Shown piece by piece: positions 7,121 through 58,611 of a DNA stretch of 64,000 nt. Both the position numbers and the translations under genes were made by a program. The notes below the pieces were generated by a model, which did not search any database, was not told the DNA's origin, and saw only the letters and a list, made by a program, of their open reading frames with translations. Within the stretch, counting starts at the first letter, position 1. The number at the start of each line of letters is the position of its first letter. The stretch lies in the NCBI RefSeq assembly GCF_003019035.1, contig NZ_CP027447.1; one strand, written 5' to 3'. The DNA comes from Escherichia coli (GTDB lineage: Bacteria; Pseudomonadota; Gammaproteobacteria; Enterobacterales; Enterobacteriaceae).

Positions 7121-8369
<1,249 letters not shown>

Positions 8370-8465
8370 CATGCCTGCAATCTGGGAAACCGGGGTAGAA
8401 AAAAACTTGCAGGCCATAACAGTATCTACGAGGATCGTGCAATATATTTATTTTGCAAGATTGTG

Positions 8466-8499
8466 TAGGCCGGATAAGGCGTTTACGCCGCATCTGGCA
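8466..8499. repeat. REP / palindromic unit
   Basis: taggccggataaggcgtttacgccgcatctggca matches the REP consensus family. Confidence 0.5.
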
Positions 8500-8532
8500 T
8501 GAACAGTGTGCATTTTGGCAATAAATATGAAA

Positions 8533-8585
8533 CCAACTGTCATGTCGGTTTTTTTAAAGGCCGAAGGTGGTAAACCTTCGGCCTT
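8533..8585. terminator. Tandem hairpins: an imperfect terminator hairpin with T-tract (8533-8555) followed by a perfect 11-bp stem (8557-8585); likely 3' end of the small-peptide transcript
   Basis: ccaactgtcatgtcgg+ttttttt, then aaggccgaagg/ccttcggcctt; first hairpin is a near-copy of the terminator at 9011-9033. Confidence 0.45.
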
Positions 8586-8601
8586 AGCTACGTTTCCTCA
8601 G

Positions 8602-8685
8602 TTATTCAATAAACTGACGGATCAGTTCCAGCAGCGCGATTAGCGCCTTAAGAACGATGAGAACTTTATCGAGAAAAGTTTTCAT
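8602..8685 (-). CDS. Candidate type I toxin: 27-aa hydrophobic/amphipathic peptide MKTFLDKVLIVLKALIALLELIRQFIE (TisB/ZorO-like)
   Basis: Below the ORF-track size cut-off; read by hand on the reverse strand; SD AAGGGAG 6 nt upstream of ATG; single predicted helix with spaced K/E/R residues. Confidence 0.55.
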   Translation of the reverse strand: MKTFLDKVLIVLKALIALLELIRQFIE

Positions 8686-8910
8686 CCGTTGCTCCCTTAA
8701 GGGAGAAAGACAATCACAGCTTACCCTTACGTTGCCTGTAACTATGATTTTCTTCATGTGCTAGATGAGGACTGCCTCTCTCCAAATTAGAGCACCAGAA
8801 TCAGCACCACCTGTATCCTGACCAGGACTTAAAAGTACTTTTCCGCACTGCGGTAATCCCTTGAGGCAGTATCACTACTAGCGTCGGGATTGTATCGCCA
8901 ACATAGCTGT

Positions 8911-8939
8911 TTGAATATGTAGGCATCCTGACTTATAAT
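8911..8939 (+). promoter_or_regulatory. Near-consensus sigma70 promoter (TTGAAT-17 bp-TATAAT) for the candidate antitoxin sRNA
   Basis: -35 at 8911-8916, -10 at 8934-8939, predicted start near 8946. Confidence 0.5.
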
Positions 8940-8945
8940 TCACTT

Positions 8946-9033
8946 GCTAGATGAGGACTGTTTCATTTCTGCCCGGAACCACCAAGTCTTGGGCGGAAAA
9001 AATAAAAAAACCGACTGTCATGTCGGTTTTTTT
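8946..9033 (+). ncRNA. Candidate type I antitoxin sRNA (about 88 nt), divergent from the peptide gene
   Basis: Runs from promoter to intrinsic terminator without a credible ORF; its 5' 14-16 nt (ctagatgaggactg) repeat 8759-8774, so are complementary to the peptide mRNA 74-89 nt upstream of its ATG. Confidence 0.5.
9011..9033. terminator. Bidirectional intrinsic terminator (sRNA on + strand, mnmH on - strand)
   Basis: ccgac-tgtcat-gtcgg hairpin flanked by an A-run upstream and T-run downstream. Confidence 0.6.
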
Positions 9034-9096
9034 ATATCTGTATTCTGGTGCAACCATTTTGTTCTCACGACAATCGCCGTTTCAGAATACCGCCTA

Positions 9097-22045: not shown

Positions 22046-22060
22046 ACCTGAATTTACCGC

Positions 22061-22087
22061 AAAAAAAGCCACGGAATAAACCGTGGC
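22061..22087 (-). terminator. Intrinsic terminator after allE
   Basis: gccacgg-aataaa-ccgtggc hairpin; reverse strand is followed by a T7 run. Confidence 0.55.
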
Positions 22088-22129
22088 AAAATCCAACATA
22101 GCTAAAAATAATCAGGCGAGTGGTATGAC

Positions 22130-25232: not shown

Positions 25233-25549
25233 CTGTCTTCCTTTTTAACGACGGTGTGAAGCATGACTGCAATTAACATACAGGGAAAATATCTGGATTA
25301 TGTGATCCAGACAGGCAAAAAAATATAGTTAGAATTTATTTGATAATCTTCGCGCTTTTAACCTGGTTATTTAAAATAACCATGCTTATTAAAAAATAAC
25401 GCGTAATAGCCTGGCGGTTATTTAAATTCTTTTGTTAATAATCCCTGTGTGATATTCATCACCTTATTTACTCGTTGTCATCGATACCGTAATCGCCACA
25501 TTAACACTGCTCGTGCAATTGCCATGGGTGCAATTTTTAAGGAGTTGTT

Positions 25550-27217
25550 ATGATCCACGCCTTTATTAAAAAAGGGTGTTTTCAGGATTCGGTCAGTTTA
25601 ATGATTATTTCACGAAAACTCAGCGAATCAGAAAATGTTGATGATGTTTCCGTAATGATGGGTACGCCCGCCAATAAAGCGTTATTAGATACCACAGGTT
25701 TCTGGCATGACGATTTTAATAACGCCACGCCGAACGATATTTGCGTGGCAATTCGTAGCGAAGCGGCGGATGCGGGGATCGCGCAGGCGGTTATGCAGCA
25801 GCTTGAAGAGGCGCTAAAACAACTGGCGCAGGGTTCAGGCAGCAGCCAGGCGTTGACGCAGGTGCGTCGCTGGGACAGTGCCTGTCAGAAATTACCCGAT
25901 GCCAGTCTGGCGCTGATTTCAGTGGCTGGTGAGTATGCGGCGGAGCTGGCGAACCAGGCGCTGGATCGCAACCTCAACGTGATGATGTTCTCCGATAACG
26001 TCACGCTGGAAGATGAAATCCAACTTAAAACCCGCGCGCGGGGAAAAGGCTTGCTGGTGATGGGGCCAGACTGCGGTACATCGATGATTGCCGCCACGCC
26101 GCTGGCTTTTGCTAACGTGATGCCGGAAGGCAACATTGGCGTCATTGGCGCTTCCGGTACCGGGATTCAGGAGCTGTGCTCACAGATTGCGCTGGCAGGG
26201 GAGGGAATTACTCACGCGATTGGCCTTGGCGGGCGTGACCTCAGCCGTGAAGTGGGCGGCATCAGTGCGCTGACGGCGCTGGAAATGCTCAGTGCAGACG
26301 AGAAAAGCGAAGTGCTGGCATTTGTTTCAAAACCACCTGCCGAAGCTGTGCGTCTGAAAATTGTTAATGCCATGAAAGCAACTGGCAAACCGACGGTGGC
26401 GCTGTTTTTAGGTTATACCCCGGCGGTGGCCCGCGACGAGAATGTCTGGTTTGCCTCCTCGCTGGATGAGGCCGCACGCCTGGCTTGTCTGCTTTCACGC
26501 GTCACTGCGCGACGTAACGCGATAGCGCCTGTCAGCAGCGGATTTATTTGCGGTTTGTATACCGGCGGTACGCTGGCTGCTGAAGCGGCGGGATTACTTG
26601 CCGGACACCTTGGCGTGGAAGCCGACGATACCCATCAACATGGCATGATGCTGGACGCCGACGGACATCAGATCCTCGACCTGGGCGATGATTTTTACAC
26701 CGTCGGGCGTCCCCATCCGATGATCGACCCGACCTTACGCAACCTGTTAATTGCCGATCTCGGCGCTAAACCGCAAGTGCGCGTGTTGCTGCTTGATGTG
26801 GTGATTGGCTTCGGTGCGACCGCCGATCCTGCCGCCTCGCTGGTGAGCGCCTGGCAAAAAGCCTGTGCCGCGCGTTCAGACAATCAACCACTGTATGCCA
26901 TTGCCACGGTGACAGGCACTGAACGTGACCCGCAATGCCGCTCGCAGCAAATCGCCACGTTGGAAGATGCGGGGATCGCGGTAGTGAGTTCGCTACCGGA
27001 AGCCACCTTGCTGGCGGCGGCGTTAATTCATCCGCTCTCGCCTGCCACACAGCAACACACACCGTCATTACTGGAAAACGTCGCCGTGATTAACATCGGA
27101 TTACGCAGCTTTGCGCTGGAGCTACAAAGCGCCAGCAAACCGGTTGTGCATTATCAATGGTCGCCAGTCGCCGGCGGCAATAAAAAACTGGCTCGTTTAT
27201 TAGAACGTTTGCAATAA
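25550..27217 (+). CDS. fdrA: FdrA (acyl-CoA synthetase / succinyl-CoA ligase-like, putative oxamate carbamoyltransferase subunit)
   Basis: 555-aa ORF, first gene of fdrA-ylbE-ylbF-ybcF. Confidence 0.85.
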   Translation: MIHAFIKKGCFQDSVSLMIISRKLSESENVDDVSVMMGTPANKALLDTTGFWHDDFNNATPNDICVAIRSEAADAGIAQAVMQQLEEALKQLAQGSGSSQALTQVRRWDSACQKLPDASLALISVAGEYAAELANQALDRNLNVMMFSDNVTLEDEIQLKTRARGKGLLVMGPDCGTSMIAATPLAFANVMPEGNIGVIGASGTGIQELCSQIALAGEGITHAIGLGGRDLSREVGGISALTALEMLSADEKSEVLAFVSKPPAEAVRLKIVNAMKATGKPTVALFLGYTPAVARDENVWFASSLDEAARLACLLSRVTARRNAIAPVSSGFICGLYTGGTLAAEAAGLLAGHLGVEADDTHQHGMMLDADGHQILDLGDDFYTVGRPHPMIDPTLRNLLIADLGAKPQVRVLLLDVVIGFGATADPAASLVSAWQKACAARSDNQPLYAIATVTGTERDPQCRSQQIATLEDAGIAVVSSLPEATLLAAALIHPLSPATQQHTPSLLENVAVINIGLRSFALELQSASKPVVHYQWSPVAGGNKKLARLLERLQ

Positions 27218-27226
27218 GGGGTTCCC

Positions 27227-28486
27227 ATGTTTACATCAGTGGCGCAAGCCAATGCTGCGGTTATCGAACAAATTCGTCGCGCTCGTCCACACTGGCTGGA
27301 TGTGCAACCGGCTTCTTCACTTATCAGCGAACTAAACAAGGGCAAAACACTGCTTCACGCCGGGCCGCCAATGCGCTGGCAGGAGATGACCGGACCCATG
27401 AAAGGGGCGTGCGTGGGCGCATGTCTGTTCGAAGGCTGGGCGAAAGATGAAGCGCAGGCGCTGGCGATGCTGGAGCAGGGGGAAGTGAACTTCATTCCTT
27501 GTCACCATGTGAATGCCGTCGGGCCAATGGGTGGCATTACTTCTGCCAGTATGCCGATGCTGGTGGTCGAGAACGTGACCGACGGCAACCGGGCCTACTG
27601 CAACCTCAACGAAGGTATCGGCAAAGTGATGCGTTTTGGCGCTTACGGCGAAGATGTCCTGACTCGCCATCGCTGGATGCGCGATGTGTTAATGCCAGTA
27701 TTAAGCGCGGCGCTGGGGCGCATGGAGCGCGGTATCGATCTCACGGCAATGATGGCGCAGGGCATTACCATGGGCGATGAGTTCCATCAACGCAACATTG
27801 CTTCCTCTGCACTGTTAATGCGTGCGCTGGCCCCACAAATTGCTCGCCTCGATCATGATAAACAGCACATCGCGGAAGTGATGGATTTCCTCAGCGTGAC
27901 CGATCAGTTCTTCCTCAACCTCGCGATGGCTTACTGCAAGGCGGCGATGGATGCAGGCGCGATGATCCGCGCAGGCAGCATCGTCACGGCTATGACCCGC
28001 AACGGCAATATGTTCGGGATTCGGGTAAGCGGGCTGGGTGAACGCTGGTTTACTGCGCCTGTAAACACTCCGCAAGGTCTGTTTTTCACCGGCTTCTCGC
28101 AGGAGCAGGCGAACCCGGATATGGGCGATAGCGCGATTACCGAAACCTTTGGTATCGGTGGTGCGGCAATGATCGCAGCCCCTGGCGTAACACGCTTTGT
28201 CGGTGCGGGTGGCATGGAAGCGGCCAGAGCGGTATCTGAAGAGATGGCGGAAATCTTCCTTGAACGCAATATGCAGTTGCAGATCCCCGGCTGGGATTTC
28301 CAGGGCGCGTGTCTGGGGCTGGATATTCGTCGCGTGGTAGAAACCGGCATTACACCACTCATCAATACGGGTATCGCCCATAAAGAGGCGGGGATCGGGC
28401 AGATTGGCGCAGGCACTGTGCGTGCACCGTTGGCCTGCTTTGAACAGGCGCTGGAAGCACTGGCTGAAAGCATGGGGATTGGTTGA
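27227..28486 (+). CDS. ylbE: YlbE (DUF1116), intact 419-aa reading frame
   Basis: Single uninterrupted ORF; I recall this gene as frameshifted in K-12. Confidence 0.8.
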
Positions 28487-28496
28487 GGAACGCGCA

Positions 28497-29312
28497 ATGA
28501 CGATCATCCATCCTCTGCTTGCCAGTAGTAGCGCACCGAATTATCGCCAGTCCTGGCGGTTAGCGGGAGTGTGGCGGCGGGCGATTAACCTGATGACGGA
28601 AAGCGGCGAACTGTTAACGCTGCATCGTCAGGGGAGTGGTTTCGGCCCCGGAGGATGGGTGCTTCGCCGCGCGCAATTCGATGCGTTATGCGGTGGATTA
28701 TGCGGCAATGAACGACCACAGGTTGTGGCTCAAGGGATTCGCCTCGGGCGTTTCACGGTTAAACAGCCACAGCGTTATTGTTTGCTGCGTATTACGCCGC
28801 CTTCGCATCCTCAACCGCTTGCAGCTGCATGGATGCAACGCGCGGAGGAAACCGGACTTTTCGGACCACTGGCGATGGCGGCAAGCGATCCGCTGCCCGC
28901 TGAATTACGCCAGTTTCGTCACTGTTTTCAGGCCGCGCTCAATGGCGTTAAGACCGACTGGCGGCACTGGCTGGGTAAAGGCCCCGGATTAACGCCAAGT
29001 CATGATGACACGCTGAGCGGAATGCTGCTGGCGGCCTGGTATTATGGCGCTTTAGATACGCGCTCCGGTCGCCCGTTTTTTGCCTGTTCCGACAATCTTC
29101 AACTCGTTACCACAGCGGTGAGCGTCAGTTATTTACGTTATGCCGCGCAAGGATATTTCGCCTCGCCACTCCTGCACTTTGTCCATGCTCTGAGTTGCCC
29201 GAAACGTACCGCTGTTGCGATTGATTCGCTGCTGGCGCTGGGGCATACGTCAGGGGCAGATACGCTGCTGGGGTTCTGGCTTGGTCAACAATTATTACAA
29301 GGAAAACCATGA
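28497..29312 (+). CDS. ylbF: YlbF (DUF2877)
   Basis: ORF track 28404..29312; start set to ATG at 28497 ([11 protein letters not shown]) with SD GAGGAA. Confidence 0.75.
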
Positions 29313-30202
29313 AAACACTGGTTGTAGCTCTTGGGGGCAATGCCTTGCTTCAGCGCGGTGAGGCGCTGACGGCAGAAAATCAATATCGCAATATCGCCAG
29401 CGCTGTACCCGCACTGGCGCGCCTGGCCCGTTCTTATCGGCTGGCGATTGTTCACGGCAACGGGCCACAGGTGGGGCTGTTGGCGTTACAGAATCTGGCG
29501 TGGAAAGAGGTAGAACCGTATCCGCTGGATGTACTGGTGGCGGAAAGTCAGGGGATGATTGGCTATATGCTGGCGCAGAGCTTGAGCGCACAGCCGCAGA
29601 TGCCGCCTGTGACGACGGTGCTGACGCGCATTGAAGTTTCGCCTGATGATCCGGCGTTTTTGCAGCCAGAGAAGTTTATCGGTCCGGTTTATCAGCCAGA
29701 AGAACAAGAGGCACTGGAAGCGGCTTACGGCTGGCAGATGAAACGTGATGGTAAATATTTGCGCCGGGTGGTGGCGTCTCCGCAACCGCGTAATATTCTC
29801 GACAGCGAAGCCATCGAGTTGTTGCTCAAAGAGGGGCATGTGGTGATTTGCAGTGGCGGCGGCGGTGTGCCTGTGACGGATGACGGAGTAGGGAGTGAAG
29901 CAGTGATTGATAAAGATCTCGCCGCTGCGTTGCTCGCCGAGCAGATTAATGCCGATGGACTGGTGATCCTCACCGATGCTGATGCGGTATATGAAAACTG
30001 GGGAACGCCGCAGCAACGTGCCATTCGCCATGCCACACCGGATGAGTTAGCGCCACTTGCCAAAGCCGATGGTTCGATGGGGCCGAAGGTAACGGCAGTG
30101 AGTGGCTATGTCAGAAGCCGTGGTAAACCCGCGTGGATTGGGGCGTTATCGCGAATTGAAGAGACGCTGGCGGGCGAAGCGGGGACCTGTATTTCGCTGT
30201 AG
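29309..30202 (+). CDS. ybcF: Carbamate kinase-like protein (ArcC family)
   Basis: 297-aa ORF with carbamate-kinase amino-acid-kinase fold motifs, coupled to ylbF. Confidence 0.85.
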
Positions 30203-30221
30203 TTGTAGGCATTAGACATTT

Positions 30222-30306
30222 GTGCCTGATGCGACGCTGATTATCCGACCTGGAAATATCACCACTTCCGCAGGTCGGATAAGGCGTTCACGCCGCATCC
30301 GGCAGG
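30222..30306. repeat. BIME: two REP-type palindromic units between convergent ybcF and purK
   Basis: gcctgatgcgacgctgattatccgacc ... caggtcggataaggcgttcacgccgcatccggcagg. Confidence 0.55.
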
Positions 30307-30321
30307 AATATGAGTACCAGG

Positions 30322-48452: not shown

Positions 48453-50676
48453 TTTCGGACTCCAGTTGCGCAACCTTTTCTGTGTTTAAACCTGCTTTGA
48501 GTAATAGTGATTGCATCGAAACTTGTAATTCGCGTTGAATTGTCAGAACGCGATCCAACGTTTCCTGGCTGATAACGCCTTCGGTGACCAAAAACTTGCC
48601 GAGCGGCAGAGAACTGCGTTCATGGCGCAATAACAACACGTTAATTGCTGAACGATTAATATGACCGAGCGTGGTCAGTATTTCGGCGAACAGGAACTGA
48701 TGCGGCACATATTGCCGCCAGATTTCACCGGCCTGCTGTTCCGTGAGCCACTGATGCTGAACCGCATTGTACAACATTGCCCGCGGATCGTGACCGCGTC
48801 GGCGCGCATACCAGTGGCGTAACCCCGTGACAATTTGTCCCCGCAGAACAATGACGTAACGCACTTTGCGTCCGACTTTACGCGTCAGGGCCGCCAGCGA
48901 AACCGGGTCAATACCATCTTCACTGCCGACAATTAACTCATCATTTTCCAGACGCAGCGGCAGCACTGCATAATGCAGCGCCACGGAGGCCGGCATCTCG
49001 GCAATCAGTGATGAAGGGATCTGCCAGGCGTCGATCGACTCCCACGCCACGCCGTTTTGCTCTGCCAGCGCCTGTGCCAGCTGCTCGGCGCTAATCAGCC
49101 CCTGCATCAGCATTGAACCGCCAAGGCGTAGACCTTCGACGCGATTACGCAGTGCTGTATCGAGTTGTTCTTCAGTGATGACCTGATTTTCCAGCAGAAT
49201 TTGACCTAACGGGCGCAACGAGCGGGTATCGCCAGTCACGCTGGGGAAGTCATGCGTTGTTTTATCCCACGCCACGCGACGTGGATCGCCGTGTTGAAGT
49301 ACCTGTTTTAACGCGCGCCAGTTGGCCATGAAGTTAATCAGGTTGCCCCAGAAAAGACGCAGGACAGATAGTAGCCCCTGCGTCAGGCCGTAGTAGCCAG
49401 TGACGAAAATCACCCGCTGCACGATGCGGTTAACCATCAAGCCAAAGTTTAGCCACAGCAGGGTCATTAACCATGCGCTGCCGCTGAAAATAGAAAGGAA
49501 ATGCCAGGCATCGGGCCACAAACTTTCATACGCCAGTAACAGCAAAAGCTGGATCATCACCAGCATCGCGAGGAAGCTGACAAAGTTACTGATTGCCCCT
49601 TTGCGGTCGCGCCAGAGAAAGTAGTTCAGCGTCAGGCTGGAGGTCCATTTGTGGGTTTTAAAGCCCTGGAAAACAATGCCGATGATCCAGCGAGATTTTT
49701 GTCGAACCGCCGTCGAAAAGGTATCGGGGAAATATTCGCGCACGCAGATCATGTTTGACGTCCGCGCGTGCTGTAAAAATTTACGCTGCTCGCGTTCTTT
49801 GGCTTCGTCCACCACCGGAAAACGGACAAAAATTTCCGTCATACCTTTTTCTTTCAGGCGGAAACCAATGTCGTAATCTTCAGTAAGACTCTGCACGTCG
49901 AAAGCAATACCGTCACCGTCAGCTAACAGTGCGGTCACGGCGCGGCGGCTGAAACAAGTACCGACACCTGCGCTGGGCACCTGTCCGGCGAGGGCTTCAC
50001 GCACCGGAACATCTTTGCCATGCAGTTCTGAAAACTCATCAATGTAAGTCATGCTGGTGAAGTGCGTCCATTCGCGTTCGAATGGGTATACCGGGATCTG
50101 AATCAGATCTTTACGCTCGACCAGATAGTTGAACAGACGCAATTCCATCGGTGAAATTACGTCTTCGGCGTCATGCAGAATAAAACCAGCAAAAGCGAAA
50201 TTGGCGCTACGCTCAAACTGGGTGATGGCGTCCAGCACGTTGTTCAGGCAGTCGGCTTTGCTGGTGGGGCCAGGACGCGCGCAGACTACCTTATGCACGT
50301 TTGGGAAGCGAGCGCACACTTCGTCAACATCACGCTGAGTATCGGGGTCGTTGGGGTAGGTGCCAACAAAGATATGATAGTTTTCATAGTCGAGCGTGGT
50401 CGCCGCCAGCTCGGCCATATTGCCGATGACGCCCGTTTCATTCCACGCCGGAACCATAATCGCTAACGGTTTTTCATCTGGTTTATACAGTTCGCGGTAA
50501 CTCATTCGCGGGTAGCGGCGATAAACACTCAACTTGCGTTTAATGCGGCGTACCCAGTAGACGACATCAATAAAAAAATCGTCCAGCCCGCTGATGAACA
50601 TGATGACCGCTAACGTTATCGCGATTACTTTTAAGCCATATAGCCAGGTTGCAAAAACATCAAGAAGCCAGTCCAC
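48439..50676 (-). CDS. nfrB: Inner-membrane family-2 glycosyltransferase NfrB (phage N4 adsorption protein B)
   Basis: 745-aa ORF with N-terminal TM segments and glycosyltransferase domain; overlaps nfrA start. Confidence 0.85.
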   Translation of the reverse strand: MDWLLDVFATWLYGLKVIAITLAVIMFISGLDDFFIDVVYWVRRIKRKLSVYRRYPRMSYRELYKPDEKPLAIMVPAWNETGVIGNMAELAATTLDYENYHIFVGTYPNDPDTQRDVDEVCARFPNVHKVVCARPGPTSKADCLNNVLDAITQFERSANFAFAGFILHDAEDVISPMELRLFNYLVERKDLIQIPVYPFEREWTHFTSMTYIDEFSELHGKDVPVREALAGQVPSAGVGTCFSRRAVTALLADGDGIAFDVQSLTEDYDIGFRLKEKGMTEIFVRFPVVDEAKEREQRKFLQHARTSNMICVREYFPDTFSTAVRQKSRWIIGIVFQGFKTHKWTSSLTLNYFLWRDRKGAISNFVSFLAMLVMIQLLLLLAYESLWPDAWHFLSIFSGSAWLMTLLWLNFGLMVNRIVQRVIFVTGYYGLTQGLLSVLRLFWGNLINFMANWRALKQVLQHGDPRRVAWDKTTHDFPSVTGDTRSLRPLGQILLENQVITEEQLDTALRNRVEGLRLGGSMLMQGLISAEQLAQALAEQNGVAWESIDAWQIPSSLIAEMPASVALHYAVLPLRLENDELIVGSEDGIDPVSLAALTRKVGRKVRYVIVLRGQIVTGLRHWYARRRGHDPRAMLYNAVQHQWLTEQQAGEIWRQYVPHQFLFAEILTTLGHINRSAINVLLLRHERSSLPLGKFLVTEGVISQETLDRVLTIQRELQVSMQSLLLKAGLNTEKVAQLESENEGE

Positions 50677-50799
50677 ACAAAAACCTTACATTAACGCTGG
50701 TTATGTTTAGGGTGGCGTATATTAAAGTTTTTTATGAATTGTGACAGCTTTTTATCATTAATAGGTAGGATTATTGCGGCACGTTATTTTTACACTGGT

Positions 50800-52110
50800 T
50801 ATAAAAGTTGCCGATTGCGTAGAATGTAGACAAAAGCGTGGTGTCAAGGAGGGGAGGGTAACGCAGGGAAAGATTACGAAAGCCCGCTCCCCGCAAGGAC
50901 TGACGCCAGATAGTTTCTGTCCATGGCTGCTTTTCGCATCTTACGTCTTAACCCTGCCTTGAATACCTTATCATTCGTCAAAATATTAATAGCGATGTGC
51001 CGTATCCCTGAAAATAATTCTGCTGCATTTCCTCTTCTTATTTTGCAGTCGTCTTCATTCATTACCACGTCCAGACGCCAGTGCAGCTTATTCTCCACGT
51101 GCCAGTGGTTTCGGATTGCTGTGGCGAACTTCTCTGCGGTTAAATCAGCAGAACTGATATAATATCTGACCGTCATTTCGGGCTCTTTCTTTTGTTCTGC
51201 TATTATTGACCGAAAGGAGACTGCCACGCATAATTTCTTCAGACCTTTCCATTCAAACGTGAAATCAATAAGTTCATCAGGGACATCGCAAACAATGTGA
51301 AGACGGATTTCTTCTCTGCCGTGACTCTTTTCACTCATTGCGTAACTGTCATGCTCTGGATTATTTAATTCTTTCAGCGGAAATTTTTCCTCGAAGGCTT
51401 TATTTAGCCGCCCCTGGTTTCCTTTTACAGCGAATAAATAATCACCTCCCTGTTTTTGTATCTTCTCTGCAATATCTTTCTGGCAACCCATCGCATCAGT
51501 TGTGATGATTTTTCCTTTAATATCCAGCATGTTAAGAAGTTCTTGGATAGCTGTAATCTCATTGGATTTCTCATCCGTCCTGATCTGTCCGATGACCAGA
51601 CTATGCATTGTTGAGAACGCACTAATGACATGAATCGCTCCCTTGCGGCGACTCTTGTCATAAGAGTGCCGGAGCGTTTTTCCATCAATTGCAATGACGC
51701 CTTTATCATCTGAAGAATGGCAGTCACGCATCCAGTTAATAAAGCACTCGTGAAATTTTGCAGGACTGATACAGGATACAACTCTGGCAATGGTATCGTG
51801 AACAGGAATACCATTTTCAAAATCACCATATTGCTTCAAAAAATCGAGATGTGTTTCCCCAAAATCCTCTATATCTTCCCAGCCTTCTGCACCAGAAATA
51901 ACGGCACAAATAGTCAACAGTAGAATATCCGACAATTTATGTTCCACTTTCCAGGCTTGTCTGTACTCGGGAATAACAGAAATATGTTCTATCAATTTTT
52001 TAAGTACCATTTTGTTCTCCTTAATTATGTAAGGAGTATTTGATCATGTATAAGCAATAAAAAACAGCTTCAGGTAATGAGGAATATCTCAATTTTTAAA
52101 CATAAAATGC
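50800..52110 (-). mobile_element. ISAs1-family insertion sequence (H-repeat element); ends approximate
   Basis: Single 378-aa transposase ORF in a unit of about 1.3 kb wedged between the nfrB promoter region and an Rhs fragment; inverted repeats not resolved by eye. Confidence 0.4.
50874..52010 (-). CDS. ISAs1-family transposase (H-repeat-associated protein)
   Basis: 378-aa [55 protein letters not shown], typical of H-rpt/ISAs1 transposases; SD AAGGAG. Confidence 0.85.
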
Positions 52111-52117
52111 GAATTAT

Positions 52118-52834
52118 TTAGTACAAAAAAGCAGCGTTACGTGATCTTTCCCTGTGTAATCCCCCAGCTAAATCATGAACTTTTTGAGCCATTTTACTTA
52201 ATTCAGGGCAGGCTCCTAAACCTAATGGATCTGTGAAGCAACACGGATTCAGCACATAACCATAAGTGTTTAGTCCACCCAATACACCCAGGGGGTCACT
52301 CACCAGATACATCCCGGTCTCCGGCTCGTAGTACCGGAACCGGTTATAGCACAGCCCTGACTCCGCATCCCGCCACTGCCCCGCATACAGCAGACCGGGG
52401 TCCGCTTCTGCGTCTCGCTCCCCGCGCGGGTCCGGGTAGTCCCTGTCTGCGCTGACGCTGAGTGCCAGCCCCCACAGGCTGGTCTGCTCCGCACGCCACA
52501 CCACGTTACCCTGACTGTTAAAGAGCATCACCGGGCGGCCTGTCAGGTCGCTTACCGCATGGCTGGTCCGCGTCACCCACTGCGGGGCCACGGACGGGTG
52601 CGGCTGCCGTACCCGGCTGAACTGCTGGCTTATCAGCTCAAAGCCGTTAAACACCAGGTACCGCACACTGTACAGTTTATCATCGCGGTATTCCCGGATT
52701 TCCGCAATAGTGTCGCCGTCCCACAGATATGTGATGCGGAGGGCTTTTTGTTTGCAGCGTTTCTCTGTCCGTCTGCCACTGGCGTCGTGGCAGTATTCCC
52801 ACTGCTCACCCCGGGCGCTGCGGTAGCCGATCAC
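52118..52834 (-). pseudogene. Orphan Rhs core-extension/C-terminal fragment, truncated
   Basis: GTG start without RBS; near-identical to residues about 1245-1450 of the upstream full Rhs through DPLGL, then only about 30 divergent residues before reading into IS-adjacent sequence. Confidence 0.6.
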
Positions 52835-52863
52835 GGCTGTCGTGGCGGAACTTTATCTCTTTT

Positions 52864-53253
52864 TTATTTAATCCAGTAAGCTAATCTCTCACCAATCTTC
52901 AAATTTTCTCTTTTGTAATAAAATACAGTATCAAAGTTAATGGATATTTTTTTCGCAATAACTTTGAATTTCAATTCAAATTCCGAATAAAACTCTAATA
53001 CTAACATTTCACGAGCATTGTCAGTGCAACTTGATAGCTTAATAAACTCCTCATTAAGATCGCATGACCAGTCCATAACACCGCTAATATAGCATGGCGT
53101 GTCTATTATTATTTCCAGTGTGTGATAGTAAGAAAGGTCATCACTCCCGGAAATAATCAAGCGATTATGTTCATAAAGAAAAACTGAAAAATCCAACCAA
53201 CTTTCTTTCCAATTATGGTGCTTTATATCATTAATTATGTTTTGCTCACTCAT
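52864..53253 (-). CDS. Putative immunity protein for the Rhs C-terminal toxin
   Basis: 129-aa AT-rich ORF whose start overlaps the rhs stop (ATGA), the canonical toxin-immunity arrangement. Confidence 0.6.
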   Translation of the reverse strand: MSEQNIINDIKHHNWKESWLDFSVFLYEHNRLIISGSDDLSYYHTLEIIIDTPCYISGVMDWSCDLNEEFIKLSSCTDNAREMLVLEFYSEFELKFKVIAKKISINFDTVFYYKRENLKIGERLAYWIK

Positions 53254-56200
53254 GGAATAGTTCCTGTAGGCAATGGTATATGAGTATCATTTGCAGCTCC
53301 TGGATTATAATTCGGACTTTTAGTTTTCAAATCAGATGTATGATGCCAACTGCCATCAGGAGAACCATACTCCCAACCATAGCCTTGATTAGTCGCAGGA
53401 TTTGTTCCACTTTGGCTTCTACCAATCCTATATATGGGGCCATTGGCAGAATTACTCCCTGCTGGAGCAGTAGGGTTTACATCATGAGCCCTTACTTCAT
53501 ATTTATAATTTCCGACGGTGAATTTTTCTTTAAATTTTATAGGGTAGTTATGCCCAGACAAGCCTTGCCGATGTAAAGCATAATTTAACACATCCTGCGG
53601 TGAGGTATTTTTAATTGCTTGATGCGCTTGTGCTGCTGTCATACCTTGAGAACGATTGTATTTATACCAATCATACATCACAGGACATATAGCTAATCCC
53701 AAAGGATCAACATACCCCAGCGGATTAGGCACATACCGGTAAGTCTGCTCACCCCCCAGCAACCCCAGTGGATCACTCACCAGGTACATCCCGGTTTCCG
53801 GCTCGTAATACCGGAACCGGTTATAGCACAGCCCCGATTCCGCATCCTGCCACTGCCCCGCATACAGCAGGCCGGGGTCGGCTTCCGGGTCCAGCTCCCC
53901 GCGCGGGTCCGGGTAGCCGGTGTCTGCGGGCAGGCTGAGTGCCAGCCCCCACAGGCTGGTCTGCCCCGGTCGCCAGACGGTTTTACCTTCACTGTTAAAG
54001 AGCACCAGCGGACGGCCCGTCAGGTCGCTCACCGCATGATTCGTTCGCGTCACCCACTGCGGGGCCACGGACGGATGCGGCTGCCGTACCCGGCTGAACT
54101 GCTGACTCAGCAGCTCAAAGCCGTTAAACACCAGGTGCCGTACGCTGTACAGTTTATCATCCCGGTATTCCCGCATTTCCGCAATACTGTCGCCGTCCCA
54201 CAGATACGTAAAACGGATTTTCTTCCGGTCGCAGCGTTTTTCCGTCCGCCTGCCGCTGGCGTCGTGGCGGTATTCCCACTGCTCACCCTGTGCGCTGCAA
54301 TACCCGGTCAGCTGGTCCCGGCTGTCCCACCGGAACCGCTCTGTTTCCGGGCGGTAGCCGTCACGGTGTCTGGTGCGGCTGACCATCCGGCCTGCGGCGT
54401 CATAGCTGTAGTCTGTGTTTCCGGTCTGTTTCAGCCGGTGGCCGCGCTGATACATGTCAGTATCCACGCTTATCCGGTGCCTGCCCGCCGACTGCGCCTT
54501 CAGGTAGCCACAACTGTCATAGCCATAGGACTCATCGCCTTCGCCATAGCCCAGCCCGGTGCCTGAGGCTGTCACCGCCGTGACCTGGCCGTTCCGGTCC
54601 AGCCGGTACTCCCGCCGTGTTTCCCGTCCGTAGTCTTCCCGGCTGGTGACAGCCGACATATTGCCCGCGCTGTCGTAACGGTACTCCCGCACCAGTGAGG
54701 GGAGCAGTCCGCCCCATGTGGCTTCCGCCGGGAAAAGTCCGGCGCGCTGGCTGGTAAGCTGACCGGCTGCATTCCAGCCCTGCTCACAGGCAAAACCCCG
54801 GTTACTGTGCCGGAGCACTTCACGTCCTGCCTCATCACGGCTGAACGTCAGCGTCTCATCCCCCGGCAGGATAACCTCCGTCAGTTCTCCGGCGGCGTTG
54901 TAGCGGTAGGTGGTTTTCAGCAGGGATTCACCGGGGTGTCTGTCGCGTTCATCTTCCGGTGGCAGGATACAGCGGATGACGGTGTGTTCATCGGGGTGGT
55001 GGTATTCAATGGCCCGTCGGCCCTGAGTGGTGACATTCACCCGCCCGCGTTCGTCATAGCCGGTGCGCTGTGATGTACCGTCCGGGCTGAAGATACCCGT
55101 CAGCCTGCCGGATTTGTCATAGGCATACTGCGTTTTGCCTTCCGGCGAGATGACTTCTGCCAGGCGGCCTGCGGCGTCCCGGCTGTAGAGGATAGTTTCC
55201 TCCAGGCCGTTAACCCTGGCGGTACAAAGGCCATCGGCGTCATAGCGGTAACGCCAGACCACGCCGCCCCAGTCACGCTCTTCCGTCACCCGTCCACAGT
55301 TGTCCAGAATATAACGGTATGACTCGCCCTGCGGATTGATGACTTCTGTCAGTTGCAGCGTGTCTTTATCGTAGCGGTACTGCCAGCGGTGGCCTTCACC
55401 GTCCGTTCGCGCCACCGGCAAATCGAACGGGCCGTATTCCATCGTCCAGACAACGCCGTTGCCGTCCGTCCAGGCCAGCAGGTTGCCGTGGCGGTCATAG
55501 CGAAATCCTTCCGCGCCGGTGCCAGTGCGTTCAAGGCCGCTCAGTTTATGGTGCTGCTGCCACCGTAACCGCACTGACTGACCGCCGGGGCCGCGCATCT
55601 TCACCGGCAGGTCGTGACCGCTGTATTCGGTGTGGTGTTCACGGCCCATCACGTCGGTGAGTGTTTCCGGCCGGTTGTGGTGGTCGTACTCTATGCCCAG
55701 ACGCCGTTCATCCTGGCGGAATATCCCCGACAGCAGCCCCTGCGGCGTGTACGCCAGCCGGGTCTCTTCGCCCTGTGGCGACACCAGACTTACCGGCAGG
55801 CCGCGTTCATCACACTGCTGCGTCCACATCTGCCCGGCAGGGTCGGTGATGTTGCTGAGCAGGCCGCGCTCATCATAGCAGTACTGCCACTCCGCACCGT
55901 CTGCCGCCGTGTAACGGCTTAACTGACCGTGTGCGGCGTTGTATTCAAACTTCTCCACCCGCCCGGCAGGGGAGTGGCGGGCCAGCAGGTGATGGAATTC
56001 ATCCCATTCATACATGGTGGTGCTGCCGTCCGGCGCTGCTTCCCGCAGAATATTGCCGTCAGGATCATAGTAATAACGGTGAATGCCCTTGCCGTCCGTC
56101 ACGGTGGTGCAGCCGTCACCATAGTCCAGCGTGGCGTTGTAATAGCCCTCCGCCCCGGTGACGGTCACGCACCGGCCCTGTGCATCGTAGGTGAAACGGC

Positions 56201-58103
56201 TCCACGTCTGGTCGTTATCGGACCAGCGGATGATCCGGTCCGCAGCGTCGTACTCATAAAACAGGTGGTAGTCCAGCCGCGCATCCGCTTCTGTCAGCCG
56301 CCCCCGCGCATCCTGTTCGTAGGTCGCCAGCATCTGTATGCCGTTATCCGTACGGTGAATGGCTTTCAGGTAGCCGCTGGCATGGTACGTCAGTTTAAGC
56401 CGGATCCCGTCGGTGTGACTGACACCCATGATGCGGTACTGGCTGTCGCGCTCAAACGTGATGCGGTTGCTGGCGGTGTCGCTCATCCCGCCCAGCATGT
56501 ACATCCGGTCTGCGGGGCTGTGTGCCAGACGGTCATCGCAGGTATCGTCAGTCACCGGGTGGCGCAGGCGCATTCCCGGAAAGGCGTCATAAAAGAAGCG
56601 GCTGCTCAGTGCATCACGGTCGAACAGCTCCAGGTAATCGTCGCGGCGGCGCAGAATGTACTGGGCGTGATACGGGTTAACCGCCGTATCACTGTCACCG
56701 TCGAAGGCAAATCTCAGCGTGGTTCCCTGGCTGATGATATCCACCCGGTTTCCCTGTTCACGCACCCAGGCGTATTCGCTCCAGGAGTCGCTCCAGCCCA
56801 CGCCCGTCAGACCATGCAGCGGCAGTACAGAACTGTGGAAACGGGTGAAGGAGAGGGGGAGTGTCTGGCCCAGCGTAAAGTCGGTACGTTCGTCGCAGTA
56901 TGCGCCGGTTACCGGATCGACAGGATCTGTTACCCATCTGATGACTTTATTGGCAATACTTTTTAACGACTTACCTGTTTTCCCCAGCAACGCGCCGAGC
57001 TTTGCCCCCAGCAGCTTCCCGCTTTTCCCCAGCAGGTTTCCCAGTTTGCCGAGTTTCGCCAGATTCCCCAGTTTTCCCAGCAGTCCCGCGGGCGGCAGAA
57101 GATAGCTGGCTATCGTTATTCCCCCCAGGATCATTCTCTGCCACGGCGGGAACTCCGGCTGGATATCCAGATAGGTCACCTGTTCACCGCCAATAAAGAC
57201 GTCCGGCGAACCTTCCACGATTGCCGCGCTGCACTCCAGTTTGTCCCCTTTGCGTGCGGCAGTCTGATTGTTGATAAAGACGTTGCTGCTGCCCTGGGCT
57301 ATCCTCGGTGGTTTGTTCTCCTTGTCGCAGAGCGCCGTGTCCTCACCGGCTTCCGGGAAATCCACGTCTTTTTTGATTTCGCCACGCCCGCCCACCATGG
57401 TGGCAAACTCCATTAATACCGGACCGGCGGGAAACAGAAGCGATGCGCCGGCGCTGACGCGATCCATAATACCGGCATTGCTGTCCGTCAGGGTGATAAC
57501 AGCGTTCCCCCAGGCCTTCGCCAGTGGTACTGCTTTTTCCGCTGCCGATTCAAGCAGGTCAGTGGCAATATCACCCCATGAGGGTTCCCCCTGTGGTGGA
57601 GAGGGTATTGCTTCAGTCAGGGGAGGAGGGGGAAGGGTGACGGCGGCCCTGGCAGCGGGCTTTCCGTTAATGTTTACATTTTTAGAACCAGTATTGATGG
57701 CCCCGTCCGTGTCACAAAAACTGTTTATCCATGATTCAAGCTGGTTCTGTTTCTCCTCCACATAATCACTCGCCTTATAGCTGGCATACATCAGCGCAGG
57801 CACCAGAACCAGCGCATAAGGGCCGGTGGCACAGGCGGCCATAATCAGGCAACCTTCTGCGATGGTCACTATCGCCCCCAGCACGGCCCCTGCCAGCGCC
57901 CCCAAAAAACTCTTGTGCTGAATTTCATCGCCCAGCCTGGCTGCGGGGGGGCCAGACTTTTTTGATGCCAACATCTGTGCAATGGCTTTGTCGTTGGCTG
58001 CCCGTTTCATCTGGCTGGCGACCATCGCCTGCTGTGACAGCATTCGCATTGCCAGCGTACCGCCTGCGGTCGCTCCCTGTGGCCCGCCTGGTCCTTCACT
58101 CAT
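53250..58103 (-). CDS. rhs: prePAAR/PAAR-domain Rhs (YD-repeat) T6SS effector with variable C-terminal toxin domain
   Basis: 1617 aa; N-terminal prePAAR motif AARLGDEIQH followed by TM helices, long YD-repeat shell, core end DPLGL, then about 150 aa of unrelated low-GC sequence. Confidence 0.9.
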   Translation of the reverse strand: MSEGPGGPQGATAGGTLAMRMLSQQAMVASQMKRAANDKAIAQMLASKKSGPPAARLGDEIQHKSFLGALAGAVLGAIVTIAEGCLIMAACATGPYALVLVPALMYASYKASDYVEEKQNQLESWINSFCDTDGAINTGSKNVNINGKPAARAAVTLPPPPLTEAIPSPPQGEPSWGDIATDLLESAAEKAVPLAKAWGNAVITLTDSNAGIMDRVSAGASLLFPAGPVLMEFATMVGGRGEIKKDVDFPEAGEDTALCDKENKPPRIAQGSSNVFINNQTAARKGDKLECSAAIVEGSPDVFIGGEQVTYLDIQPEFPPWQRMILGGITIASYLLPPAGLLGKLGNLAKLGKLGNLLGKSGKLLGAKLGALLGKTGKSLKSIANKVIRWVTDPVDPVTGAYCDERTDFTLGQTLPLSFTRFHSSVLPLHGLTGVGWSDSWSEYAWVREQGNRVDIISQGTTLRFAFDGDSDTAVNPYHAQYILRRRDDYLELFDRDALSSRFFYDAFPGMRLRHPVTDDTCDDRLAHSPADRMYMLGGMSDTASNRITFERDSQYRIMGVSHTDGIRLKLTYHASGYLKAIHRTDNGIQMLATYEQDARGRLTEADARLDYHLFYEYDAADRIIRWSDNDQTWSRFTYDAQGRCVTVTGAEGYYNATLDYGDGCTTVTDGKGIHRYYYDPDGNILREAAPDGSTTMYEWDEFHHLLARHSPAGRVEKFEYNAAHGQLSRYTAADGAEWQYCYDERGLLSNITDPAGQMWTQQCDERGLPVSLVSPQGEETRLAYTPQGLLSGIFRQDERRLGIEYDHHNRPETLTDVMGREHHTEYSGHDLPVKMRGPGGQSVRLRWQQHHKLSGLERTGTGAEGFRYDRHGNLLAWTDGNGVVWTMEYGPFDLPVARTDGEGHRWQYRYDKDTLQLTEVINPQGESYRYILDNCGRVTEERDWGGVVWRYRYDADGLCTARVNGLEETILYSRDAAGRLAEVISPEGKTQYAYDKSGRLTGIFSPDGTSQRTGYDERGRVNVTTQGRRAIEYHHPDEHTVIRCILPPEDERDRHPGESLLKTTYRYNAAGELTEVILPGDETLTFSRDEAGREVLRHSNRGFACEQGWNAAGQLTSQRAGLFPAEATWGGLLPSLVREYRYDSAGNMSAVTSREDYGRETRREYRLDRNGQVTAVTASGTGLGYGEGDESYGYDSCGYLKAQSAGRHRISVDTDMYQRGHRLKQTGNTDYSYDAAGRMVSRTRHRDGYRPETERFRWDSRDQLTGYCSAQGEQWEYRHDASGRRTEKRCDRKKIRFTYLWDGDSIAEMREYRDDKLYSVRHLVFNGFELLSQQFSRVRQPHPSVAPQWVTRTNHAVSDLTGRPLVLFNSEGKTVWRPGQTSLWGLALSLPADTGYPDPRGELDPEADPGLLYAGQWQDAESGLCYNRFRYYEPETGMYLVSDPLGLLGGEQTYRYVPNPLGYVDPLGLAICPVMYDWYKYNRSQGMTAAQAHQAIKNTSPQDVLNYALHRQGLSGHNYPIKFKEKFTVGNYKYEVRAHDVNPTAPAGSNSANGPIYRIGRSQSGTNPATNQGYGWEYGSPDGSWHHTSDLKTKSPNYNPGAANDTHIPLPTGTIP

Positions 58104-58122
58104 GTGTTATCCCTCGTTTATG

Positions 58123-58584
58123 TCAGCGCGGCTGGTCCTTTTGGATGTCATTCTCCGGTGGCAACGGGGTGAAGCTCTTTATCACCTCCAGCAGCATCGT
58201 CTTTTGACTGTTCTTCAGGGATAAGGAGGTGCTGAAAGTGAAGGTCAGCAGCGTATCTCCACGCCGCTGGAATACGGCTATCTGGCTAATCCGCCCCTGA
58301 TTCCCTTCATCTTCCGGACCGTTCCAGGAATAATCCAGCAGCCAGGCCGGGGCCTCTGCCAGAGTGATTTCCCGGCAGGCATGTTCGGTGTACCCATCAA
58401 GTTTGCCCTGGTACAGCGCCAGCGTTTCCTGGTACAGCTCTGGTGTCAGGGTTCCCTGTGGAACGGCTTCGCGGGTAATGACCAGGTTGATGCCACTGTT
58501 ATCTGTGGACACCAGGACCTGCATTGACTGATCCTGCCATTGAGACGGCAGTTGAATGTGGCCTTCATTAAAAGTGAACTGCAT
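58123..58584 (-). CDS. DUF1795-family effector-associated chaperone (EagR-like)
   Basis: 153-aa ORF between vgrG and rhs, the position held by Eag chaperones for prePAAR effectors. Confidence 0.75.
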   Translation of the reverse strand: MQFTFNEGHIQLPSQWQDQSMQVLVSTDNSGINLVITREAVPQGTLTPELYQETLALYQGKLDGYTEHACREITLAEAPAWLLDYSWNGPEDEGNQGRISQIAVFQRRGDTLLTFTFSTSLSLKNSQKTMLLEVIKSFTPLPPENDIQKDQPR

Positions 58585-58611
58585 AAAATACTCCCTGTTA
58601 ATCTGAGTGAA

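Follow-up and report, generated by a model that had tools for sequence, protein, structure and literature searches.

Intact ylbE (allG) in an Escherichia coli allFGHK operon and the origin of its "K-12 pseudogene" allele

The ylbE gene has been called a frameshifted pseudogene in Escherichia coli K-12 MG1655, which raises the question of whether a strain with an uninterrupted copy retains a function that the reference strain has lost. We addressed this question on a stretch of 64,000 nucleotides of an E. coli genome (NCBI RefSeq assembly GCF_003019035.1, contig NZ_CP027447.1), from now on referred to as the window. A previous sequence-only reading of the window had singled out ylbE as an intact 419-codon open reading frame (ORF), contrasted it with a frameshifted K-12 copy, and proposed that the present strain may retain a functional version of a poorly characterised operon.

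The first of these points holds: on the basis of the ORF list and the sequence, ylbE spans positions 27227-28486 on the plus strand, from an ATG start to a TGA stop, and its 419 codons are not interrupted by any internal stop. The range originally given for it, 27227-29312, comprises both ylbE and ylbF. The gene, now named allG, is assigned to a subunit of the oxamic transcarbamylase (419 aa) by its ORF, its Pfam match, its alignment to K-12 and its similarity to the PDB entry 3CLQ. It is preceded by fdrA (allF; 25550-27217, plus strand), coding for a 555-aa subunit of the same enzyme, and followed by ylbF (allH; 28497-29312, plus strand), coding for another subunit of 271 aa when counted from the ATG used in K-12, and by ybcF (allK; 29309-30202, plus strand), coding for a catabolic carbamate kinase of 297 aa. 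The four genes are tightly packed. The gap between fdrA and ylbE is 9 nt, with an AAGGGG motif, placed as ribosome-binding site, 5 nt before the ylbE ATG; the gap between ylbE and ylbF is 10 nt, with GAGGAA preceding the ylbF ATG at 28497; and the ylbF stop and the ybcF start overlap by 4 nt (ATGA). The earlier description of an intact fdrA-ylbE-ylbF-ybcF operon was correct also in the identity of the genes, all of which have their K-12 lengths.

Two kinds of mechanical product of the ORF search were set aside. The longest ylbF ORF begins at a TTG at 28404, and this extended start was rejected, having no family match and being unannotated in relatives. Similarly, the two antisense ORFs within ylbE (27815-28507 and 27931-28497, of 230 and 188 aa) gave no Pfam match and are unannotated in K-12 and in the SCU-301 strain.

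The family searches gave matches far above the respective cut-offs for all four proteins. AllG matched PF06545 (Oxamate carbamoyltransferase subunit AllG) with 326.7 bits against a cut-off of 27, covering profile positions 1-215 of 215, and FdrA matched NCBIfam NF004760 along residues 1-555 of 555 (1036.5 bits, cut-off 433). YlbF matched Pfam PF11392 (AllH) with 101.7 bits against 25, while the NCBIfam search returned no family for it. Lastly, YbcF matched the carbamate-kinase equivalog NF006926 (616.9 bits against 416) and TIGR00746 arcC (424.9 against 358).

Then, we compared the operon to that of K-12. In the current MG1655 record (NC_000913.3), ylbE (b4572, YP_009029994.1) is an intact 1260-bp CDS located between fdrA and ylbF. 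The alignment of 27227-28486 to this gene, which had been proposed as a check, is gap-free and contains no frameshift, with 97.38% nucleotide identity and 415 identical residues out of 419; the supposed contrast between a broken MG1655 copy and the present strain is thus refuted, an intact K-12 ylbE in the current annotation being the very result that the sequence-only reading had named as refuting it. The four substitutions of the window AllG relative to K-12 are E38K, I81M, Y344F, and S355G, and all of them fall where 3CLQ also differs, i.e., at non-conserved positions. In total, the two ylbE copies differ at 29 synonymous and four non-synonymous sites, giving a dN/dS of 0.039. This value indicates strong purifying selection, and the frame is not open by chance. 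The corresponding values for fdrA, ylbF, and ybcF are 0.05-0.09. The earlier proposal that the strain retains a functional ylbE is probably correct.

The same picture extends to the whole operon. MG1655 allFGHK (b0518, b4572, b0520, b0521) has the same gene order, spacing, and lengths as the window, and the flanks are shared too, with allD upstream and divergent and purK downstream and convergent. Each of the four genes aligns without gaps to its K-12 counterpart of exactly the same length, with 97.0-98.0% nucleotide identity and three to nine amino acid changes per protein (nine in FdrA, whose gene is 97.5% identical, and three in YlbF). Besides these changes, the window differs from MG1655 in a patch of 13 differences in the operator region and in a shorter spacer between ybcF and purK, both described below. 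Being 99% identical to the K-12 proteins, those of the window would be expected to do the same job. The 25550-30202 region is almost certainly the ordinary, intact allFGHK operon of E. coli, which closes the allantoin (ALL) gene cluster, and none of the observations made speaks against this.

If the current MG1655 gene is intact, where does the pseudogene come from? The gene was called a pseudogene on the earlier MG1655 reference, and two changes, A>G at position 547,694 and +G at position 547,831, were described as restoring its frame (PMC5460176, PMC4404585, PMC3045373). One of these works lists them among "variations in common MG1655 stock cultures" (PMC4404585), and the frame was also reported as "restored" in NCM3722 and in evolved MG1655 lines (PMC3045373, PMC5460176). 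In gene coordinates, these positions are ylbE nt 114 and roughly nt 253. The latter falls in a run of five G (G5) at ylbE nt 252-256, which in the window lies at 27478-27482 on the plus strand and is the sole G homopolymer of at least five bases in the gene. Removing one G from this run in silico brings a stop at codon 87.

A direct comparison leads to the same two sites. The ylbE gene of W3110 (NC_007779.1), flagged as "frameshifted" in RefSeq, differs from that of the current MG1655 at two places only, namely an A at nt 114 and one G of the run; in the coordinates of the W3110 record these lie at 547,694 and 547,832, matching the literature. The allele that W3110 shares with the superseded MG1655 reference concerns the same locus and the same G run as in the window, and differs in having G4, an A at nt 114 and a truncated product of 86 aa, where the window and the current MG1655 have G5 and a G at nt 114. 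With G5 at 27478-27482 and no stop at codon 87, the window does not belong to the pseudogene allele. The history of the allele given here is based on three secondary papers and on the direct comparison of W3110 with MG1655. The primary paper on MG1655 stock variation is reportedly that of Freddolino et al. 2012.

To place these alleles in the species, the run was searched in complete E. coli genomes. A 59-nt query gave exact matches to the G4 allele in 4/5,415 genomes, i.e., W3110, CIT, LIM, and CAR. In the last three, the locus has the same coordinates as in W3110; the CIT gene is identical to that of W3110 and is likewise annotated as "frameshifted" (two of the four G4 records were checked for this). 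The CIT record is 4,639,673 bp long, a length that presumably differs by just a few bases from that of the superseded MG1655 reference; the CIT, LIM, and CAR assemblies appear to derive from that old reference. Shorter queries of 36 and 38 nt gave the same result: among the ~4,940 genomes with identical flanks, G4 was found exactly in four and the G6 allele had no exact match. In these queries GGGG plus the 24-nt right flank forms a 28-mer, so that G5 genomes were seeded as well, and exact full-length matches were counted; since a single SNP makes a G4 genome indistinguishable by percent identity from a G5 genome free of SNPs, the counts apply outside the ~8% of genomes that carry a SNP within these 36 nt. 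C600, ER1709, and an independent MG1655 assembly (CP032667) all carry the G5 allele. What has been called the "K-12 pseudogene" is an allele whose G5 run is one G shorter, and its occurrence is limited to the superseded MG1655 reference, the W3110 record, and three assemblies derived from MG1655.

These data bear on the idea that the present strain is unusual in keeping a functional ylbE that MG1655 lost by frameshift. In its favour, a frameshifted gene is indeed found in the old MG1655 reference and in the W3110 record of the current RefSeq. Against this stand the intact gene of NC_000913.3, the G5 state of C600, ER1709, and CP032667, the presence of G5 in essentially all of ~5,415 genomes, and the fact that deleting allG has a phenotype in MG1655 itself (PMC11326118). 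We regard this explanation as extremely improbable. The description of a frameshifted K-12 ylbE was accurate for the superseded MG1655 reference and for the W3110 record, and does not apply to the current MG1655.

Another possibility is that of a contingency locus: slippage in the G5 run would switch the oxamate branch on and off, so that populations would alternate between intact and frameshifted copies. In line with this, ylbE has just one known inactivating allele, which changes this run by one G, and no other G homopolymer in the gene reaches five bases; moreover, the reports on NCM3722 and on evolved MG1655 lines could be read as reversions. A run of five bases is, however, much too short for classical phase variation, G4 occurs exactly in just four records of laboratory lineage and G6 in none among the ~4,940 genomes, and an error, or a stock-specific variant, in the old reference accounts better for the "restorations". 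A contingency locus thus has hardly any chance of being the right reading.

Rather, an intact ylbE is the norm in the species, including the current MG1655, as judged from the state of the G run and from the operon length in a sample of genomes. Out of 5,426 complete genomes, 5,420 contain the gene, and 5,407 contain the 4,653-bp operon with at least 80% query coverage; among 45 evenly sampled records, 42 have an operon span of exactly 4,653 bp. The SCU-301 strain, a human commensal, is collinear with the window at 99.8-99.99% identity. Its allantoin cluster is complete and comprises allS, allA, allR, gcl, hyi, glxR, allW, allB, ybbY, and glxK, followed by allE-allC-allD on the other strand and then by fdrA-ylbE-ylbF-ybcF and purK. 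In this context, ylbE lies between allF and allH, with allK next and allDCE adjoining.

The value of these results is mostly one of housekeeping: the intact ylbE is no strain-specific gain, and the "K-12 pseudogene" is dated to a superseded reference. Wherever the old MG1655 reference or W3110 serves for variant calling or annotation, spurious "ylbE reversions" or "pseudogenes" will go on being reported.

As for the function of the operon, its description as poorly characterised is out of date: it is already known to code for the enzymes of the two final steps in the anaerobic breakdown of allantoin, its biochemistry was solved between 2022 and 2025, its genes now bear the names allFGHK, and its enzymes have been purified and measured (PMC11326118, PMC9843812). 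In MG1655, fdrA-ylbE-ylbF-ybcF are co-transcribed, as found by RT-PCR, and the purified YbcF protein was shown to act as a catabolic carbamate kinase (Kim et al. 2022, PMC9843812). AllF, AllG, and AllH together form the oxamic transcarbamylase, which in purified form catalyses the reaction oxalurate + Pi <-> oxamate + carbamoyl phosphate; the Km for carbamoyl phosphate is 1.3 mM and that for oxamate 36.9 mM (Kim & Kim 2024, PMC11326118). In the same study, single deletions of allF, allG, and allH in MG1655 lowered the oxamate produced from allantoin to 0, 0, and 1.2 mM, respectively, against 17.7 mM in the wild type, and production was restored only by allFGH together. This published enzymology bears out the link to carbamate kinase and to the oxamate branch of allantoin catabolism that had been read from the sequence. 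The anaerobic allantoin test of a ylbE mutant suggested in the sequence-only reading also exists already in the form of the allG deletion, performed in K-12. By analogy with K-12 (PMC11326118), the AllG of the window is expected to be needed for OXTCase activity and oxamate.

In the strain studied here, the pathway would proceed from AllD, which would make oxalurate, to AllFGH, which would phosphorolyse oxalurate to oxamate and carbamoyl phosphate, and to AllK, which would use carbamoyl phosphate to phosphorylate ADP, with ATP, NH3, and CO2 as products. All four genes would be read from one mRNA starting at a promoter in the allD-allF intergenic region. In K-12, AllS and ArcA activate allFGHK and bind its promoter (Kim & Kim 2025, PMC12535856), and in the present strain the promoter would likewise be activated by AllS as the allantoin signal and by ArcA as the signal of anaerobiosis.

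We also investigated the relatives of the three transcarbamylase subunits. The PDB contains a structure of FdrA (3DMY) and one of a YlbE homolog (3CLQ); none was found for YlbF or for the complex. The best match of FdrA is 3DMY, with an E-value of 5e-303, and the alpha chains of succinyl-CoA synthetase (SCS), its closest relatives of known function, come next. 3CLQ, a structural-genomics entry of 421 aa labelled "Uncharacterized protein", is a YlbE/AllG homolog that aligns end to end with the window protein (residues 2-414 against 7-418, E 2.4e-111).

The FdrA protein carries CoA_binding and Ligase_CoA Pfam domains, as in the NDP-forming acyl-CoA synthetase superfamily, and its residues 118-290 align with residues 66-238 of SucD, the succinyl-CoA synthetase alpha subunit (E 2e-08, 21% identity). 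In SucD, the catalytic phosphohistidine is His246, in the GHAGA loop. The pairwise BLASTP alignment does not reach this loop, stopping at SucD residue 238, and no GHAGA-like motif was found in FdrA after residue 290. We then considered FdrA as an SCS-alpha protein proper and rejected this, the scores being 51.4 bits against a cut-off of 336 for NF004230 and 45.7 against 353 for TIGR01019. Lacking the phosphohistidine motif and scoring below the thresholds, FdrA is therefore a relative of SCS-alpha that stands outside that family, as far as sequence comparison can tell. Succinyl-CoA synthetase also differs from the AllF system in that no ATP-grasp partner is present here, and the AllFGH activity measured in K-12 is carbamoyl transfer and not CoA ligation (PMC11326118). 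AllF probably works without an SCS-type phosphohistidine, and its features would fit a direct release of carbamoyl phosphate, and not the passage of phosphate via a histidine to a nucleotide.

The classical transcarbamylases (ATCase PyrB, OTCase ArgI/ArgF, and YgeW) belong to the same reaction class, in which the carbamoyl group moves between carbamoyl phosphate and an amino or amide nitrogen, and the pairing of AllFGH with AllK resembles that of the catabolic OTCase with ArcC in being coupled to an ATP-making carbamate kinase. Unlike these enzymes, which have one catalytic chain, AllFGH needs three different subunits (PMC11326118). None of the three matched the carbamoyl-phosphate-binding or substrate-binding domains of the ATCase/OTCase family in the Pfam and NCBIfam searches, and that AllFGH stands outside the ATCase/OTCase superfamily is also the conclusion of the authors who characterised it (PMC11326118).

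The one feature of the locus that goes beyond the textbook picture lies in the divergent allD-allF (fdrA) promoter region at 25233-25549, which holds the segments reported in K-12 to be bound by AllS and ArcA. Here the window shows 13 differences from the K-12 intergenic sequence, all located at 25349-25424 (-201 to -126 from the allF ATG), while the rest is identical. The patch overlies the AllS EMSA fragment and part of the ArcA fragment. A repeat search and an alignment of seven haplotypes revealed in it a perfect 9+9 palindrome, TGGTTATTT-A-AAATAACCA, at 25364-25382, with a T-N11-A box inside. Its centre lies at about -177 from the allF ATG, near the predicted AllS site (-181), and by this centre position, as given in a figure legend of PMC12535856, the palindrome is a candidate AllS site. 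The repeat search also found a second direct copy of GGTTATTTAAA in the window promoter. Downstream, at 25432-25442, the ArcA-box-like sequence TTGTTAATAAT is invariant in 7/7 haplotypes compared and lies close, by position, to the ArcA site reported as top-scoring (-117).

Since 13 differences from K-12 fall in the AllS region, regulation could differ quantitatively. A stronger version of this would be that the ORFs are intact and the operon is silent, or otherwise regulated, in this lineage as a result of its divergent AllS/ArcA operator haplotype. The clustering of the differences at -201 to -126 in an otherwise identical intergenic region would fit this, as would a palindrome that is perfect where that of K-12 is degenerate, and the exact promoter haplotype of the window occurs in just 34 of 5,426 genomes. 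On the other hand, the dN/dS values of 0.04-0.09 indicate that the genes are kept under selection in the lineage; TTGTTAATAAT, the -1 to -125 region, and the ribosome-binding site are identical to K-12; and a more symmetric T-N11-A box is expected to bind a LysR-type activator at least equally well. We consider a silent or rewired operon very unlikely. The promoter palindrome was treated as a minor polymorphism, because K-12 regulates the operon normally without the perfect version.

Among the seven haplotypes, that of O145:H28 has another perfect palindrome, TGGTTGTTT-A-AAACAACCA, which differs by a symmetric A/T<->G/C double change, and those of ST131, ATCC 25922, PMV-1, O111, and K-12 have an imperfect palindrome with a 1-nt deletion in the left arm. 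Template switching at quasipalindromes is a known mechanism. Template switching that repeatedly corrected quasipalindromes at a LysR-type operator may have left these palindromes behind, and they could bring a lineage-specific tuning of the AllS-dependent induction of allDCE and allFGHK; we find this combined proposal doubtful, with a small chance of being correct. If true, induction of the two gene sets by AllS would be tuned differently between lineages.

A conserved hairpin in the promoter was also considered. Folded as DNA, the window version reaches -8.6 kcal/mol with a z of -2.2. The hairpin potential is modest and not conserved: K-12 reaches just -2.2 kcal/mol and ST131 -4.4, compared with -8.6 and -10.0. 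A conserved structure was rejected, since shuffled sequence folds as well as the K-12 and ST131 versions. As for known RNA elements, searching the region between allD and allF against Rfam gave chance-level matches only.

At the other end of the operon, the convergent ybcF-purK intergenic region (30203-30321) contains one REP-like palindromic unit. In the alignment, K-12 has extra units there, and the spacer of the window is 75 bp shorter.

The comparison of the whole allFGHK operon (fdrA-ylbE-ylbF-ybcF, 25550-30202) with the E. coli genome collection showed that SCU-301, a genome collinear with the window, is the only one at least 99% identical (100%), and that all other genomes of 5,423 reach at most 97.9% identity over the same interval. 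When ylbE was taken alone, identity of at least 99% was found in 42 genomes. Because this level is shared by 42 genomes for ylbE but by SCU-301 alone over the operon, the operon allele of the window's lineage is rare and possibly mosaic. Among the ylbE/operon matches in the collection, two were on records classed as plasmids, and two copies were present in one genome.

In the promoter region between allD and allF, the alignment to K-12 (MG1655) revealed 13 differences, all packed into positions 25349-25424, the rest of the region being identical. This patch sits on the fragments reported to be bound by AllS and ArcA, the activators of the operon (PMC12535856). It contains a perfect 9+9 palindrome (25364-25382), and a second copy of GGTTATTTAAA lies at 25416-25426. 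Among the seven haplotypes compared, the O145:H28 promoter also carries a perfect 9+9 palindrome, and a symmetric double change (A/T<->G/C) distinguishes it from that of the window. In K-12, ST131, ATCC 25922, O111, and PMV-1, the palindrome is imperfect. The outer 4-bp arms also covary, being CGCG...CGCG in the window and CTCA...TGAG in K-12. The exact promoter haplotype of the window was present in only 34 of the 5,426 genomes. In E. coli SBF22 (NZ_CP067235.1, 4565797-4566185), an IS1 transposase gene is placed directly 5' of fdrA, within the same promoter region; this natural insertion probably uncouples allFGHK from AllS/ArcA control.

At the other end of the operon, the ybcF-purK spacer (30203-30321) contains a single REP-like palindromic unit, while that of K-12 has additional REP-like units and is 75 bp longer. 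Elsewhere in the allantoin cluster, the convergent glxK-allE spacer hosts an Rfam match to the enterobacterial sRNA STnc480 (22057-22123, + strand; 81.9 bits against a cut-off of 72).

On the basis of the SCU-301 annotation, a VgrG/DcrB-like/Rhs-core island (about 50000-59500) lies between nfrB and cusS. The island includes an ISAs1 transposase as well as fragments of Rhs that carry the flag "frameshifted" in SCU-301. The alignment of the window to SCU-301 at this island contains 16 gap openings in 15.8 kb, thus homopolymer or assembly errors are possible in either sequence. According to the same collinear annotation, the tRNA-Arg gene at the argU position (43524-43597) is directly followed by envY, ybcH, and nfrA, with no prophage integrated at this gene; in K-12, the argU tRNA-Arg is occupied by the DLP12 prophage.

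Between ybbP and mnmH, a position occupied by the rhsD region in K-12, the window carries an IS621 (IS110-family) element, with its transposase at about 7340-8320. Adjoining this element, within about 7340-9035, the window has an ORF for a dinQ-like type I toxin (about 8602-8685), which is annotated in SCU-301, and an Rfam match to the AgrB antisense RNA (8947-9035; 53.6 bits against a cut-off of 40). The two features together resemble an additional, second copy of a toxin-antitoxin system of the dinQ/agrB type.
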